IMG/VR virus record: IMGVR_UViG_2534681701_000012
Direction: 5' to 3' (one strand)
Length of the DNA: 17,104 nt
From: a virus
Lineage: Duplodnaviria > Heunggongvirae > Uroviricota > Caudoviricetes
Positions 1,422-11,900 of this stretch are shown one piece after another. The notes below the pieces were generated by a model. The model ran no database searches. It had not been told where the DNA came from and saw nothing but the letters and a program-made list of their open reading frames with translations. The position numbers were made by a program, and so were the translations under genes. Every line of letters begins with the position of its first letter. The stretch's first letter is position 1.

Positions 1422-3365
1422 TTAAAAATCAGCCTGACTCGGGATCAGTTTTTGCCAGATAACTGAAACGTATTTTGCCTGGTAACGGGCGTCATCAAGT
1501 GCATTATGGCGCTCACCTTCGAATGGAATAGCCGTTCTGGCATCGAAGTCTATGGCTTTCCCCAGCTCAACGATTGTGCGTACATCGCGATCGTTGTAGT
1601 AACGCCACGGGCAGGGGATCCCCTGCCGTTCGTATGAACGGCGCAAAATCGTGTTGTCGAAGTTGGCTCCATTTCCCCAAACCTGAACAAAAAATTCACC
1701 GGAGTTTTCGTCGATAAATTCCCGCAATTGTAACAGTGCATCATCTAACGGGATTTCATCGGTCATAATGGCAGATTGCGCTTCGCGTGATTGCTTAAGC
1801 CACCATTTAATGGTGTCCCGATCAATGACTCCGCCAGCAGTTTCCAGATCGATAGTCTTACTAAATTCCGGTCCCATATCTCCGGTTTGCGGATCGAAAA
1901 ATATTGCACCTATTGAGATGATCGGGGCATCAGGATTTTTTCCCATGGTTTCAAGGTCGATCATTAGATGGTCACACGTCCTGCTGGTGGATGTGATTTC
2001 TTGATGACCGTTCACCTTAATTGAGTGATCTGCCGTCTCGCCAGTTTCATTATCGCTATCGTGATGCTGATTGCCGTCAGTGTTCTCCTTGTGTGGATGT
2101 TCAGCGCCTTCCATTTCCTCCGGATCATCTTCCTGAACTTCAACCTGATACTCTTCATCGAATGTTTCCTGGTATGTTGCGTCGCCCATCACCGCGCCAC
2201 AATCAGGGCAGTTGCCGCCGCCGGTCTGACCGCAGGCGGTGCAGACTTTTTCCACTTCCTGTTGCGCCACTGGTTCAGGCTGTTTCGTTTCTGGCTCGTT
2301 TTGTAACGCATTTGGGCTGTTTTGTTCCGCTTTCTGGCCGTTCTGTTCCGTTTCTTGCTGGTTCTGATTCACTGAATCGCGGGTTTCAATCCCCTTCACC
2401 CATTTCGGATCATTCGGGTCGCTAATCCCTGCAACAAATTCACCACGTGATACAGCAAGCAACTTATTGGCGTCAGGCTGGCTGATATTGGCTGCCTGCA
2501 TAATTTTGTTTACTTCGTCAGCGGTAACTTTTACCGGCTCTGGTTGTGCGATCGTGTCAGATGCACCAGTATTTTGTTGTGAACCTGAGTACGTGCCGTT
2601 TTTACGTGCGAAGTATTCCTCTTTTGTGATTTCCGTAGCTCCCAGGGCCAGTGCTTTTTCCAGACCAGAAAGTTTGTTTGCGCGACCGTATTTTTCGCCG
2701 TCCTTATCGGTGAAAAGGAAGTAGAACGGTCCCTCACGCTCTACAGATGGTTCGTCTTCCACTTCGCATTCGGTTTTTTCGTTGTCCGGCATTGCCGTTT
2801 CCACTGCATCAGTTTCTGGTACTGGTGACGGGAGAGTACCAGCTGTGCCCTGATTTGTTCCTTCGTCATCTTCAAACACGCCCTTGGTAGTCAGGTATTC
2901 AGTGATGTATTTGTTCAGTGCTACGGGATCTTTGTGAATGTCGATCGGACGCTCACGGACAAGGCCAAAAATAGTCTGACGGTCGTAGCGAACGGCATCG
3001 GGTTGTTTGCGCATTGATGCGGAAATGCGCTTCCAGTCTTCGCGATCTTTGTCGATAACTTCATTTTTTGCCCAGCGATGGATGCTGCCGTCAATGTTTC
3101 CGGTATCAATATCGCCAGGCCAGAGAGCGTAGGCCAGTTCTTCATCCAGCGTTTTCCATGTCTGCTTGTATTCGCGACAAATGGCGGCAGTGACTGGGTT
3201 GATTTTTCCTGCTGAGTTTTCAGTGTTCTGTTGATTGACTCTGGCGCTGGCGAGATCAACAACAGACGTGTATTTTCCAGTCTCTTTGCGCTCTGCGTCC
3301 TGCCGTTTTTTCCAGTTACTTTTTCCAGTTACGTAATTCAGCCTGAATTTCGGGCCATTTGGCAC
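1422..3365 (-). CDS. Putative 3'-5' exonuclease (DnaQ/DEDDh domain at C-terminus) with zinc-ribbon and acidic linker
   Basis: 647-aa ORF. C-terminal ~190 aa carry Exo I/II/III motifs (MIDLETMG, WGNGANFD, HNALDDARY). Central CTACGQTGGGNCPDCG is a CxxC...CxxC motif. Long D/E/Q-rich low-complexity middle region. The 5' end overlaps the upstream ORF by 50 nt. Confidence 0.8.
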   Translation of the reverse strand: MPNGPKFRLNYVTGKSNWKKRQDAERKETGKYTSVVDLASARVNQQNTENSAGKINPVTAAICREYKQTWKTLDEELAYALWPGDIDTGNIDGSIHRWAKNEVIDKDREDWKRISASMRKQPDAVRYDRQTIFGLVRERPIDIHKDPVALNKYITEYLTTKGVFEDDEGTNQGTAGTLPSPVPETDAVETAMPDNEKTECEVEDEPSVEREGPFYFLFTDKDGEKYGRANKLSGLEKALALGATEITKEEYFARKNGTYSGSQQNTGASDTIAQPEPVKVTADEVNKIMQAANISQPDANKLLAVSRGEFVAGISDPNDPKWVKGIETRDSVNQNQQETEQNGQKAEQNSPNALQNEPETKQPEPVAQQEVEKVCTACGQTGGGNCPDCGAVMGDATYQETFDEEYQVEVQEDDPEEMEGAEHPHKENTDGNQHHDSDNETGETADHSIKVNGHQEITSTSRTCDHLMIDLETMGKNPDAPIISIGAIFFDPQTGDMGPEFSKTIDLETAGGVIDRDTIKWWLKQSREAQSAIMTDEIPLDDALLQLREFIDENSGEFFVQVWGNGANFDNTILRRSYERQGIPCPWRYYNDRDVRTIVELGKAIDFDARTAIPFEGERHNALDDARYQAKYVSVIWQKLIPSQADF

Positions 3366-3909
3366 CCGGATTACATTTGTGTTTAACCCATCCGATAGCG
3401 AACAGTTTGCGTTCCGGATACATAGCGTTAATTTCAGGCGTTTTCATCAGTGCTTCAACGATATGCCCGTCAAAGGTAGCAACGTCTTCCTGCAGTAATT
3501 CCTGCGCGTCAATCGCCATATCAACGGTGATGTTTTCACATGTACCGAACTTAACCAGGACCGCGTTCTGTACTTCAAGGGACAGCTTGTCAAAATTGAC
3601 GTTCATCGGATCGGATTCTGGTTCGACCGGAATAAAGGAAGCGGATTCCTCATCCCAGCGGTTTTCCTGCATATATTCAGCATCCCAGGAATCGAGGGCA
3701 GGGCGGGGTATACCGGGTTTATCCTCGCAAACAAGAAATTTATAAGCGCAGTCCTGAGCAGCCGGATAATGTTCCAGGAATTGCCAGTGAAATTTTGCGC
3801 GGGCGCGACGTTCATCACCGGCTTCAATGGCAGTGGCTACAGCGACGGCACCTTCTTCCTTTATTGCCTGTTCGTCCGGAATGGCGGCGCAAATAAAGAC
3901 TTTACTCAT
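3316..3909 (-). CDS. Hypothetical prophage early-left protein
   Basis: 197-aa ORF in the leftward operon between ydfD-like and the exonuclease, co-directional, with normal codon composition. No family recognised from sequence. Confidence 0.6.
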   Translation of the reverse strand: MSKVFICAAIPDEQAIKEEGAVAVATAIEAGDERRARAKFHWQFLEHYPAAQDCAYKFLVCEDKPGIPRPALDSWDAEYMQENRWDEESASFIPVEPESDPMNVNFDKLSLEVQNAVLVKFGTCENITVDMAIDAQELLQEDVATFDGHIVEALMKTPEINAMYPERKLFAIGWVKHKCNPGAKWPEIQAELRNWKK

Positions 3910-4004: not shown

Positions 4005-4193
4005 TTATCCAGCCGGTGTTTCGTTATTCAGGTACAGCGATACTTTTTTTAGCGGGAGGCATTCACCAGAAATTTTTTGCTCGTCTCTTGCCTGGAGGCA
4101 GGATTCTTTACTTGCATAAATTCCGGTAATCACATTCTGTGATTCACCCGTTATAAGAAAAACCGTCATCATCAGTGCAAATGCTGAAGTCAT
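4005..4193 (-). CDS. ydfD: YdfD-like small protein with hydrophobic N-terminus
   Basis: 62-aa ORF whose ATG overlaps the dicB stop (ATGA). N-terminal MTSAFALMMTVFLITGE is signal/TM-like. Position directly after dicB matches ydfD of the Qin prophage. Confidence 0.6.
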   Translation of the reverse strand: MTSAFALMMTVFLITGESQNVITGIYASKESCLQARDEQKISGECLPLKKVSLYLNNETPAG

Positions 4194-4378
4194 TGACGTT
4201 CTCCGAAAATACCAAGTTCAAGAAGAGCAATTCGGGAAAGTATGGAATTATCATTGAGCAGATAAGGCTCATATTTCCTCATATTAATGGCATCTTCAGT
4301 AAACTCCCGGTTACTGAGCAGAACACCAATATCAAAACAACCTTCAGACGTATTAACGTTTGGTAATAACGTTTCCAT
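4190..4378 (-). CDS. dicB: DicB-like cell-division inhibitor
   Basis: 62-aa ORF; N-terminus METLLPNVNTSEGCFDIGV...FTEDAIN closely matches my recollection of E. coli DicB (MKTLLPNVNTSEGCFEIGV...FTEDAIN). Lies downstream of the DicF-like element, as in the Qin dicB operon. Confidence 0.8.
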   Translation of the reverse strand: METLLPNVNTSEGCFDIGVLLSNREFTEDAINMRKYEPYLLNDNSILSRIALLELGIFGERQ

Positions 4379-4556
4379 TATCGCGTCCTCAACAATGAAT
4401 TTTGTGATGCAGTGCCTGGTGCCTCCAGGTGACGTTAACCAGTTAACAATTAACGCCGGATTAGTTGATGCTCGTTACGCCCGTAAAATACCGCCTTACT
4501 GCTTTAACTGTTCCGCGTGCGCATAGCCGCATTCACCGCATCACAAAATTCACTTT

Positions 4557-4596
4557 AAAAAGGGCGGATATCCGTTTCCGCCGAATCACCAGAAAA
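4557..4596 (-). ncRNA. dicF: DicF-like small RNA (short variant) ending in an intrinsic terminator
   Basis: Minus strand reads UUUCUGGUGAUUCGGCGGAAACGGAUAUCCGCCCUUUUU. The 5' UUUCUGGUGA and 3' CCGCCCUUUUU match the ends of K-12 DicF as I recall it. 6-bp stem GGCGGA/UCCGCC with an 8-nt loop plus U-run. The following sequence toward dicB also looks like the K-12 dicF-dicB spacer. Ends approximate. Confidence 0.6.
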
Positions 4597-4897
4597 GTGA
4601 TAACAGAGGGCGTTGCTGCGGGGTTGTCACTTAAGCGTATGGTCAACCTGACAACCCGGTGTCCTCAGCGGGGAAGGAATAACCCCGCCATACTTACCGC
4701 CGCGCCATTTCGCGGATTGCCACAACCGGAAGCGCACGGTCGAATTAAATTTAACGACTACCTACAGAGAGACGAACTTCGCCGTGCGCTTTCGCGTTAT
4801 GCCCTGACTTTTCAGGGATATATCCTTTTCAGTAAACTGTCAGTGCCGGATTCTTATCCGTGTCCGGCGCACGCACTCTACCTCACCTGTGAATAAA

Positions 4898-5272
4898 TTA
4901 ATGATTAATTGATATTTTGTTGTTTGATTCAACTTTCCCATCGGATGTGTGATGCTTTAAATCACAGGAATTAATACTGCTTGCTGTAAAATGATTTTCA
5001 AGGGGAGCTATTCGAATCCCTTTCTTTTTCATTAACAAGCCAAATCCTTTATTAAGGATGTCCATTAATTCCAGGAAGTATTTTTCATGTAAATCCTGGT
5101 TATCAGAGAGCTGATTCTCTTCGCACAGACCGATAAAGGCACGACGCACGTTACCGGATATAGTATCGATGGTTTCTTTTTCTACGGTACTCAGGTCAAG
5201 AGTCGCCGGTTGGGAACGAACTATATTCGCTGCCATTTCCTGGAATTGCATTGGTAAATCTTTAAATTCCAT
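4898..5272 (-). CDS. Hypothetical protein inserted between ydfC-like and dicF-like
   Basis: 124-aa ORF with GAGG Shine-Dalgarno 7 nt upstream of the ATG, starting 22 nt after the ydfC-like stop. The 3' third is AT-rich (about 4900-5060). No recognisable motif. Confidence 0.6.
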   Translation of the reverse strand: MEFKDLPMQFQEMAANIVRSQPATLDLSTVEKETIDTISGNVRRAFIGLCEENQLSDNQDLHEKYFLELMDILNKGFGLLMKKKGIRIAPLENHFTASSINSCDLKHHTSDGKVESNNKISINH

Positions 5273-5294
5273 TATTAGCCTCGTTGGTTAGCTA

Positions 5295-5513
5295 TTAACG
5301 CGGGTATGTAATCATTCTGGCAATGCTTAATGCCGCTGCTTTTTCCAGATTAGTGATATCCTGCTCCAGAGCGGACAGATTTTCAGCCTGCTTAGCCCTG
5401 GCTTCATTGGCCCATTTCAGATCCTGCGCTGCATTAATTTTCTGGTGCATCCACTCATAAAGTTCATCATCGGTATAGTCTGGCGCGATGATGACGGGTT
5501 CTCGTTTCTGCAT
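5295..5513 (-). CDS. ydfC: YdfC-like small protein
   Basis: 72-aa ORF third in the leftward operon; size and position match ydfC of the Qin dicB operon. Predicted coiled-coil-like sequence. Confidence 0.65.
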   Translation of the reverse strand: MQKREPVIIAPDYTDDELYEWMHQKINAAQDLKWANEARAKQAENLSALEQDITNLEKAAALSIARMITYPR

Positions 5514-5542: not shown

Positions 5543-5671
5543 TCAGCCGTTAGATTTTGCCGAACTGGAAAGCGCCTGTTTAAATTCGTTGAAGCTGAGA
5601 GCTTCTTCGCCTTCGGCAAGACCTTCGAAGTATTCTTCGTAAGCCTTTTCCATGATTGTGTCGAAATCCAT
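5543..5671 (-). CDS. ydfB: YdfB-like 42-aa protein
   Basis: Hand translation gives MDFDTIMEKAYEEYFEGLAEGEEALSFNEFKQALSSSAKSNG; it is below the ORF-track size cut-off. ATG lies 1 nt after the ydfA-like stop. Length and sequence match my recollection of YdfB. Confidence 0.6.
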   Translation of the reverse strand: MDFDTIMEKAYEEYFEGLAEGEEALSFNEFKQALSSSAKSNG

Positions 5672-5672
5672 A

Positions 5673-5828
5673 TCACTCACCTGAGTTTCTTTCCAGCCAG
5701 CGACGGGCACCATTTTCGGTTTTAAACGTTTTGCTTTTGGTATACGTCATCGCGGTGAATGTGCCCTCCTGGTTGGGAAACACGCCGTACACCAGAGATT
5801 CGTTGTTGCCAAGCTCGATAGTATCCAT
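5673..5828 (-). CDS. ydfA: YdfA-like 51-aa protein
   Basis: Hand translation gives MDTIELGNNESLVYGVFPNQEGTFTAMTYTKSKTFKTENGARRWLERNSGE; below the ORF-track cut-off. First gene of the leftward operon after the repressor, as in Qin. Confidence 0.65.
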   Translation of the reverse strand: MDTIELGNNESLVYGVFPNQEGTFTAMTYTKSKTFKTENGARRWLERNSGE

Positions 5829-6024
5829 GCTGACCTCATTTCCCCTTAACGCCGGGTGGCGGAACTAAAACCTACAGCGCCGTGCTGTTCTTGATAGAGA
5901 TATTAGTAACGCGGATATTTTAAGTCAACAGTATGGCGTATGATATTTTTGATTTGGTAACTATGTAAATGTTTTTTCAAGGGAAAAATATTAGTTATAC
6001 AGCTGATTTGCAGAAGTTATGGCA

Positions 6025-6081: not shown

Positions 6082-6543
6082 CTACTGGTTACGTTTCTTT
6101 AGTGCCAGCATGTTCTCGAAGGCTTCCTCGTAGAGCTTGTTTAGTCCACGTAGCTGGTTAAGGAGTTTGGCTTTTTCTGACGCAGGTAGAATCTCGAAGA
6201 GGTTAAGTAACTCTGCCTGTTCTTCATTGACCAGCCTCCATCCTTTGCCTGAAAAGTTATCATCATAAGTATCTGATGATCTTACATAATTCATTAAGTC
6301 TTTAAGGTCTTCTCGAATGTCCTCTGGTTTTACCTTTAACAGAGCCGCAAATTTTAGCGCAGCGTCGGTATTTACCGGTATCTTGCCGTTCAGATACTGG
6401 CTAACGGTGCCTTGAGATTCGAATCCCAACAACTCAGCCGCCAGCTCTTGAGTCAGCTTCAGCTCTTTTTTTCTTGCATTCCATGCGGCTTTTAAATTCT
6501 TGCTCGCTTCTGGAGTTGCAATCACTTCGCGTGTTTTTTTCAT
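6082..6543 (-). CDS. CI/DicA/RacR-like HTH repressor (XRE family)
   Basis: 153-aa ORF with HTH LTQELAAELLGFESQGTVSQYLNG, transcribed divergently from a Cro-like gene across a 100-bp AT-rich intergenic region. Confidence 0.85.
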   Translation of the reverse strand: MKKTREVIATPEASKNLKAAWNARKKELKLTQELAAELLGFESQGTVSQYLNGKIPVNTDAALKFAALLKVKPEDIREDLKDLMNYVRSSDTYDDNFSGKGWRLVNEEQAELLNLFEILPASEKAKLLNQLRGLNKLYEEAFENMLALKKRNQ

Positions 6544-11485: not shown

Positions 11486-11744
11486 ATACAGCGAACGCTA
11501 TTGGTTTAGTTGGATATTTACTGTGCCGGACAAAAACGGTTTGCAGGGAAATCTTAGTTAAGTAGAATGACTGTGGGTGCTTGAGGCTATCTGTCTCAGG
11601 CATGAACACCAAAAGGCAGATAGAGAAAAGCCCCAGTTAACATTACGCGTCCGGCAAGACGCTTAACATTAATCTGAGGCCATATCTATGCTCTACACAC
11701 GTAGGTTAGCCTCTTACGTGCCGAAAGGCAAGGAGAAGCAGGCT

Positions 11745-11900
11745 ATGAAGCAGCAAAAGGCGATGCTAATCGCCCTGATCGTCATCTGTTTAACCGTCAT
11801 AGTGACGGCACTGGTAACGAGGAAAGACCTCTGCGAGGTACGAATCCGAACCGGCCAGACGGAGGTCGCTGTCTTCACAGCTTACGAACCTGAGGAGTAA
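11745..11900 (+). CDS. hok: Hok/Gef-family membrane toxin (HokD/RelF-like)
   Basis: 51-aa product MKQQKAMLIALIVICLTVIVTALVTRKDLCEVRIRTGQTEVAVFTAYEPEE has the Hok signature (TM helix, RK..LCE.R, EV..F.AYE). AGGAG Shine-Dalgarno 9 nt upstream. Confidence 0.85.
   Translation: MKQQKAMLIALIVICLTVIVTALVTRKDLCEVRIRTGQTEVAVFTAYEPEE

Follow-up and report, generated by a model that had tools for sequence, protein, structure and literature searches.

The 124-aa open reading frame lying between the ydfC-like and DicF-like elements of a lambdoid prophage (ORF124) was identified in this work as one allele of a narrow family of Enterobacteriaceae prophage genes whose members, as alignment of their sequences shows, share an N-terminal module (N-module) and carry exchangeable, unrelated C-terminal modules (C-modules). 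It is an accessory and not a core gene of the dicF operon and, judged by the substitutions that separate its alleles, it is a real protein-coding gene under purifying selection. The stretch of DNA analysed (the window; 17,104 nucleotides) is a lambdoid prophage of the Qin/Rac type integrated at ompW. Its closest public relative, the ompW-integrated prophage of E. coli 510016 (L001), is 98.7% identical and has the same gene annotation. The elements of the window on which the analysis bears, given in the order of transcription, are:

6082-6543, minus strand: cI/DicA-like HTH repressor gene of the immunity region (HTH_3), with a LexA-family protein at the same place in L001
5900-5969, minus strand: two sigma-70-like promoter matches upstream of ydfA (consensus scan), at the position of dicBp by analogy with K-12 (PMC10448788)
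5673-5828, minus strand: ydfA, DUF1391 (Pfam, E 1e-26), first gene of the early-left operon and conserved left flank of the slot that ORF124 occupies
5543-5671, minus strand: ydfB homologue (PHROG match), with the K-12-type 42-aa start at 5671
5295-5513, minus strand: ydfC homologue, 72 aa (PHROG match), upstream neighbour of ORF124 in the window
5273-5294, minus strand: 22-nt spacer from the ydfC stop to the ORF124 start, carrying the Shine-Dalgarno sequence (SD) GAGG
4898-5272, minus strand: ORF124, 14 kDa, pI 5.7, publicly annotated 'hypothetical protein' and a member of phrog_6937 over its full length
5114-5272, minus strand: N-module of ORF124, codons 1-53 (MEFKDLP..NVRRAFIGLxEE), with predicted amphipathic helices at residues 8-20 and 32-52
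4898-5113, minus strand: C-module of ORF124, codons 54-124 and stop, AT-rich and allele-specific
4596-4891, minus strand: conserved non-coding pre-DicF leader, ~90-100% identical to that of K-12 Qin and starting a few bases past the ORF124 stop
4557-4595, minus strand: DicF-like sRNA, a 39-nt short variant (UUUCUGGUGAUUCGGCGGAAACGGAUAUCCGCCCUUUUU), with its intrinsic terminator stem at 4582-4563
4190-4378, minus strand: dicB, cell-division inhibitor and downstream member of the operon (PF05358, E 6e-37)
4005-4193, minus strand: DUF1482/ydfD (Pfam)

Both the list of open reading frames and direct reading of the sequence gave ORF124 as 124 codons with an ATG start (5272-5270), preceded by the SD at 5282-5279, 6 nt ahead of the ATG, and by the TAA stop of the ydfC-like gene at 5297-5295. 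The GC content was 34-37% over positions 4860-5100, the C-terminal-coding part, against 40-48% for the 5' part of the gene, and 44-60% in the adjoining pre-DicF leader. The initial annotation had described a 124-aa ORF with a GAGG SD, 22 nt past a ydfC-like stop and with an AT-rich 3' part, between ydfC-like and DicF-like elements of a dicB operon; all of this could be read directly, with the minus strand as the coding strand, and the identity of the neighbours was borne out by Pfam and PHROG matches. The program-called ydfB ORF is longer than the one listed above (56 aa, 5543-5713, minus strand) and shares 41 nt with ydfA; an internal ATG is the start chosen in K-12 and RefSeq (42 aa), yet PHROG 2061 matches all 56 aa, so the start of ydfB is ambiguous. 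Elsewhere in the window, a 13-bp tandem duplication (TTTTTCCAGTTAC x2, at ~3307-3332) that is absent from L001 lies in the early-left exonuclease gene (1422-3909, minus strand; 'exonuclease' in the annotation of L001), where it shifts the frame and leaves two ORFs, 3316-3909 and 1422-3365; the split reflects either a pseudogene or a mistake in the assembly. Rfam RF01794 matched a sok antitoxin RNA over its full length at 11575-11750 on the plus strand (117 bits), placing a hok/sok type I toxin-antitoxin locus in the late-early region of the prophage, in agreement with the hokD annotated in L001.

Alleles of ORF124 were taken from 81 loci (80 IMG/VR contigs and L001) and amounted to 31 distinct nucleotide sequences, or 32 counting that of the window, every one of which was intact. 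Variable sites numbered 29, 18 and 49 at codon positions 1, 2 and 3, respectively, and dN/dS (Nei-Gojobori) was 0.19 overall and 0.18, 0.23 and 0.18 in the N-terminal, middle and C-terminal thirds, values comparable to those of ydfA (0.20) and dicB (0.11) at the same loci. The initial annotation had named a lack of coding conservation across homologous prophages as grounds for abandoning its proposal; with dN/dS at 0.19 and 32/32 alleles intact, coding conservation was what we found. Four other frames gave dN/dS of 0.9-2.5 and the wobble-sharing antisense frame 0.27, the latter being the expected artefact of sharing wobble positions. An alternative reading frame was therefore rejected, all other frames, bar this artefact, being at or above 0.9. 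An overlapping functional RNA was likewise rejected, since synonymous divergence was nowhere suppressed (pS 0.10-0.16 across the thirds), and an Rfam search of positions 4300-5350, at the gathering threshold and at E<=10, detected no RNA family inside or overlapping ORF124.

ORF124 matched phrog_6937 from end to end (E 4.4e-75; residues 1-124 on profile positions 1-124 of 124) and its residues 1-63 also matched phrog_1363, phrog_2151 and phrog_9419, which are of other lengths. All four PHROGs are labelled 'unknown function', and no record was found, in the literature searched, of the link among them, namely a common N-module, swapped C-modules and a fixed slot in the operon. A word-indexed search returned 237 relatives, virtually all from Escherichia with a few from Salmonella, Enterobacter, E. 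albertii and E. marmotae, which fell into length classes of 124, 106/109, 122 and 133 aa and diverged past about residue 53. When 1.84 billion cluster representatives were searched exhaustively with an HMM, only 44 clusters matched. The C-terminal part of ORF124 matched close relatives only among these representatives; the N-terminal residues 1-60 were common to proteins of 60-208 aa with unrelated tails, and several family members were just 60-100 aa long. The consensus of the N-module is MEFKDLPxxIQxIAAxTLxxxL...KxxIDNxARNVRDAFxGLY, and ORF124 conforms to the family pattern M-E-F-K-D-L-P-x2-[IF]-Q-x-[IM]-A-A...N-V-R-x-A-F-x-G-L-[YC] (~53 aa). M1, L6, P7, A14, A15 and F46 were invariant in a 16-sequence alignment of the N-module (A5), and V42 and R43 were invariant or nearly so in two further alignments (A1 and A4). 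Alleles of the 124-aa class, down to 60-67% identity, retained both their length and a C-terminal motif, EKYFLxLMDII..GLLM..KGIR..P. The widespread 106/109-aa alleles are without the last ~18 residues, indicating that part of the C-terminus is dispensable. A full-text literature search for the family sequence motif found no paper, and the papers on dicBF make no mention of such a gene. In kind ORF124 is one of the accessory genes of lambdoid early-left operons, a familiar class, and its sequence is already held by PHROGs and NCBI; what is newly added here is the structure of the family, its slot and the exclusion of several identities.

The occupancy of this slot was surveyed in an unbiased sample of dicF loci, consisting of 80 viral contigs picked solely for carrying, letter for letter, a 25-nt stretch of the pre-DicF block. 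A family member stood just upstream of the block in 29 of the 80, with at least eight C-terminal types (101, 106, 112, 121, 124, 129/186, 133 and 212 aa) among those 29 loci. ORF124 is thus no unique insertion but one allele of a family that fills about one third of the sampled dicF operons. The family gene mostly starts 11 nt past the ydfA stop, and in a minority of loci 22 nt past that of ydfC or 11 nt past that of ydfB, the layouts being combinatorial (ydfA-[ydfB]-[ydfC]-[family gene]-preDicF-dicB-ydfD). ORF124 itself directly follows ydfA in 56 of 77 loci and ydfC, as in the window, in the other 21 (~27%). A linkage between ORF124 and ydfC was rejected, 73% of the ORF124 loci being without ydfB and ydfC.

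Pairwise DNA maps of loci with other C-terminal types against the window gave 85-95% identity in ydfA, 75-93% in the first 30-180 nt of the family gene and 85-96% in the pre-DicF block. The DNA between these conserved stretches is unrelated, so that the C-module behaves as a cassette swapped between two homology arms. The N-module DNA would be the left homology arm of the swap and the pre-DicF leader its right flank; on the evidence of these maps, the alleles differ as if recombination had swapped what lies between the N-module DNA and the pre-DicF leader, both of them conserved. Many of the loci with other C-terminal types, and some with the 124-aa type, have an extra AT-rich segment of ~240 nt between the gene stop and the pre-DicF block (L092, L095, L128, L144, L154 and L162 are among them), which holds only short ORFs of 36-41 aa, poorly conserved and in some cases hydrophobic. 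The window is without this segment and ORF124 abuts the pre-DicF leader.

Distant members of the family were found in other settings. One of 150 aa (P0157; locus L204) belongs to a Rac-like prophage, where it is flanked by a DUF1391 gene and kilR, with recE and int further on, and another (P0147) has a different context, after YfdP/DUF2303. The corresponding interval of K-12 Rac (L210; NC_000913.3 1417838-1419456) contains sieB, on the opposite strand, between ydaF (DUF1391) and the kilS sRNA and kilR. ORF124 has the same early-left position, downstream of ydfA/DUF1391 and upstream of the division-inhibitor module. The position of P0157 and the sieB interval of Rac together make the slot a conserved feature of Qin/Rac-type early-left operons, and the presence of sieB in Rac means that at least one other occupant of the slot is a superinfection-exclusion gene. 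The two layouts run parallel, each with DUF1391, a variable slot, an sRNA (kilS or dicF), a division inhibitor (kilR or dicB) and an exonuclease, which suggests a modular design common to both prophage types.

In the Qin prophage of E. coli K-12 (NC_000913.3), ydfC is followed by a 340-nt non-coding leader and then by dicF. Pairwise alignment with Qin revealed a clean indel: the entire ORF124 is missing, and the ydfC stop with a short leader is directly joined to the conserved ~300-nt pre-DicF block. The proposal that the ORF is extra relative to the Qin operon was thereby confirmed, and ORF124, absent from NC_000913.3, does not belong to the K-12 Qin set ydfABC-dicF-dicB-ydfD. It is like the canonical K-12 Qin dicBF genes in its operon, strand, tight spacing and presumed repressor-controlled promoter, but bears no sequence relation to YdfA, YdfB, YdfC, DicB or YdfD. 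Among 5426 complete E. coli genomes, the pre-DicF leader was present in 4315 (8977 places) and the K-12-type empty ydfC/pre-DicF junction in 2799 (>=80% coverage); sequence from any part of ORF124 was present in 932 (17%; 1036 places) and full-length ORF124 in 702, its annotation in these genomes being 'hypothetical protein' in every case. The exact protein is deposited in NCBI and UniRef under the name hypothetical protein; 640 sequences make up its 90% cluster, and a single allele was found on at least 1000 contigs. Comparison of dicB operons across prophages, which the initial annotation had suggested, therefore yielded presence/absence variation, and the finding that it had set against its own proposal, a conserved core gene of all dicB operons with a known function, is not what the genomes contain.

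The ORF124 protein has no hydrophobic or transmembrane segment (GRAVY -0.45). Three strongly amphipathic helices are predicted, at residues 8-20, 32-52 and 59-83 (the third being YFLELMDILNKGFGLLMKKKG), and the tail (~90-124) is predicted to be disordered. Two AlphaFold2 runs, from alignments of 18 and 36 sequences, agreed with each other at low confidence (pLDDT ~57, pTM 0.28-0.38), and a Foldseek search with this low-confidence model gave no match in BFVD or the PDB at E<=0.001. No match rising above noise was obtained in Pfam, NCBIfam or PADLOC, either with ORF124 or with other family alleles, of which up to nine were run per library. Among the defence components of PADLOC-DB v2, ORF124 was unmatched and two other alleles gave sub-threshold noise only, and a sequence search of the PDB with the family profile and three longer alleles returned nothing. 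The first description of ORF124 as a protein with no recognisable motif agrees with the lack of a curated Pfam, NCBIfam or PADLOC match, and the profile-HMM and Foldseek searches recommended along with it led only to PHROGs of 'unknown function' and to no significant fold match.

Downstream of ORF124, the element initially called DicF-like is indeed present, although in a rare short form of 39 nt that escapes the Rfam DicF model. This variant occurred in 8 of 80 loci selected by ORF124, in L001 and, with one base altered, in 1 of the 80 loci of the unbiased dicF sample. A linkage of ORF124 with short DicF was rejected, most ORF124 loci having canonical DicF. Short DicF retains the terminator and the 5' seed for pairing with xylR, and is without the central/3' part through which K-12 DicF pairs with ftsZ and pykA (PMC5069750); going by this sequence, it may no longer repress ftsZ. 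The ~300-nt pre-DicF leader is 85-100% conserved over several thousand E. coli genomes, above some of the flanking coding genes, and an RNase III/E processing structure could conceivably be the reason. A 143-aa ORF antisense to the leader (4465-4896, plus strand), with a TTG start and in GC-rich DNA, is probably spurious. A sub-threshold Rfam match to STnc100 (4346-4564, minus strand; 31 bits where the gathering threshold is 47, E 1e-4) spans the region from the DicF terminator to the dicB leader, including a strongly conserved CACCUGGAGGCACCAGGCAC hairpin, and the Salmonella sRNA STnc100 may be the counterpart of the DicF-dicB leader.

By analogy with K-12, the sites at 5900-5969 are presumed to be the promoter of the operon that includes ORF124, and the repressor encoded at 6082-6543 is presumed to control this early-left promoter. 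In K-12, a polycistronic ydfABC-dicF(-dicB-ydfD) RNA is transcribed from the DicA-repressed dicBp (PMC10448788; PMC5069750). A consensus scan found promoters only upstream of ydfA and its sole terminator at DicF (stem 4582-4563), with no terminator around ORF124 and no credible promoter in the ydfC-ORF124 spacer; the nearest promoter-like match (9/12) overlaps the SD and start codon of ORF124 itself. Since the scan revealed no promoter or terminator of its own, ORF124 is a member of the early-left operon and not a classical moron. Operon membership, together with the DicA-repressed transcript of K-12, makes it most likely, by analogy, that ORF124 would be made only on derepression.

The initial annotation had proposed ORF124 as a candidate moron acting on host physiology or on phage defence or anti-defence. 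With respect to lambdoid morons in the sense of Hendrix and Juhala, it is alike in its AT-richness and in its presence or absence between otherwise near-identical operons, as seen in the indel against Qin and the GC content of 34-37% in its 3' part, both hallmarks of such genes. It differs in being embedded in an early operon without autonomous signals: neither a promoter nor a terminator of its own was found by the consensus scan, the one nearby promoter match coincides with its SD and start, and its start 22 nt (11 nt elsewhere) past the preceding stop, within a repressor-controlled transcript, fits co-translation with the operon. The term therefore fails in its strict sense, and we regard as highly improbable that ORF124 is a classical lysogenic-conversion gene, with a promoter of its own that is active while the prophage is repressed, to the constitutive benefit of the lysogen. 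The other part of the proposal, a role in host physiology, defence or anti-defence, is plausible by position because K-12 Rac has sieB in the equivalent slot.

The reading that we favour as a whole, with moderate confidence, is that of an accessory modular gene encoding a binding protein made on derepression, built from anchor and specificity modules and acting in conflict. ORF124 would be produced with the polycistronic ydfA...dicF transcript once the repressor is lifted, whether by induction, infection or spontaneous derepression, and would be a small, soluble, acidic and helical cytoplasmic protein that acts by binding. The common N-module would anchor it to a conserved partner, or would oligomerise, and the variable C-module would set its target specificity. 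The most likely arena would be conflict of phage with host or of phage with phage, by way of exclusion, abortive infection or counter-defence, as for sieB and ral at the corresponding position of Rac, lambda and P22. This conflict role is the weakest link of the package and, taken by itself, we consider it tentative and somewhat improbable; its basis is positional analogy and C-terminal polymorphism, and ordinary lambdoid mosaicism might equally well have produced this polymorphism. The equivalence with SieB is one of place only. SieB, known from Rac, lambda and P22, is a membrane protein with its own promoter, and in K-12 Rac its gene holds a slot equivalent to that of P0157; ORF124 is predicted to be soluble, no promoter of its own was found by the consensus scan, and it lies on the operon strand, whereas Rac sieB is on the strand opposite to the early-left genes. 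Homology with SieB was looked for in Pfam and NCBIfam, where no match was obtained, and by membrane topology, where ORF124 displayed no hydrophobic segment.

Three other roles were weighed against this package. ORF124 could instead be an effector of host physiology that works alongside DicF, DicB and YdfD on cell division, the envelope or metabolism, for instance through the helix 59-83 (GFGLLMKKKG), and not on phages. Such a function would suit a location directly ahead of division inhibitors, whether dicF/dicB in Qin-type operons or kilR in Rac-type ones, and the strongly amphipathic character of all three predicted helices. In K-12 both DicF and DicB act on the host (PMC5069750), and the genome record labels ydfD 'lysis protein'. 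We nevertheless hold this role to be unlikely, given that no similarity to any division or envelope factor was found, that a conserved host target poorly explains at least eight unrelated C-termini, and that K-12 operons without ORF124 are fully active in filamentation (PMC10448788). An action inside the phage, as an analogue of lambda cIII or some other modulator of lysis-lysogeny or recombination, was suggested by a motif spotted by eye. Lambda cIII is an FtsH-inhibiting amphipathic-helix peptide, and its gene directly adjoins kil in the early-left operon according to the annotations of phage records. Both proteins are thus small early-left products encoded beside a division inhibitor, similar in size and in amphipathic-helix character, and they share a 16-residue helix resemblance (R-x-[LV]-R-D-[GA]-[WF]-x-x-L): helix 2 of the family (xxIDNMARNVRDAFTGL) aligned with the cIII core LLERITRKLRDGWKRL in hhalign, for which the cIII sequence was checked in phage records and an alignment of the cIII family was built. 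This similarity was not significant, with no BLASTP alignment, hhalign probabilities of 2.5% against lambda cIII and 1.4% against the family profile, and no match of ORF124 to Pfam Lambda_CIII, and homology with cIII was rejected. ORF124 is moreover twice as long and polymorphic, and a housekeeping regulator would not be missing from most dicF operons or bear unrelated C-termini, so that we judge a phage-internal regulator to be very unlikely.

The third alternative is that ORF124 might be a largely neutral by-product of mosaicism, in which the N-module alone, or nothing, is functional and the C-terminal part is AT-rich foreign DNA that is read through past a recombination junction and survives on account of the youth of the prophage lineage. 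The low GC of the C-terminal-coding part (34-37%), the predicted disorder of the tail, the common alleles of only 106/109 aa and the members of 60-100 aa would all be compatible with it. The middle and C-terminal thirds are, however, under constraint as strong as that on the N-module (dN/dS 0.23 and 0.18), the divergent 124-aa alleles have kept their length and C-terminal motif, and pS of 0.10-0.14 implies time enough for stops to accumulate, yet all 32 alleles are intact. This makes neutrality very unlikely, and we retain the modular binding protein made on derepression as the preferred reading.

About 80% of complete E. coli genomes retain the dicBF operon, despite its toxicity on overexpression (PMC5069750); the operon is a model for cryptic prophage genes that serve the host, studied so far in the K-12 operon, which is without ORF124. 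Because about one third of the sampled dicF operons carry a family member, an unstudied component may contribute to phenotypes that, in pathogens and commensals, are ascribed to the 'dicBF operon'. A fixed anchor, a swappable tail and a slot shared with sieB offer a cheap and concrete hypothesis of exclusion or counter-defence. It is a speculative and rather doubtful extension of this hypothesis that the MEFKDLP family constitutes an unrecognised modular conflict system of Qin/Rac-type prophages, with an N-terminal adaptor and rapidly exchanged specificity modules. If it were true, MEFKDLP proteins would exclude or abort rival phages or neutralise host defences, being expressed together with division inhibitors on derepression, and the slot from ydfA to DicF/KilR would be a dedicated hotspot for such genes. 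Should ORF124 prove inert or merely regulatory, the family would still provide a map of a recombination hotspot in lambdoid early-left operons.
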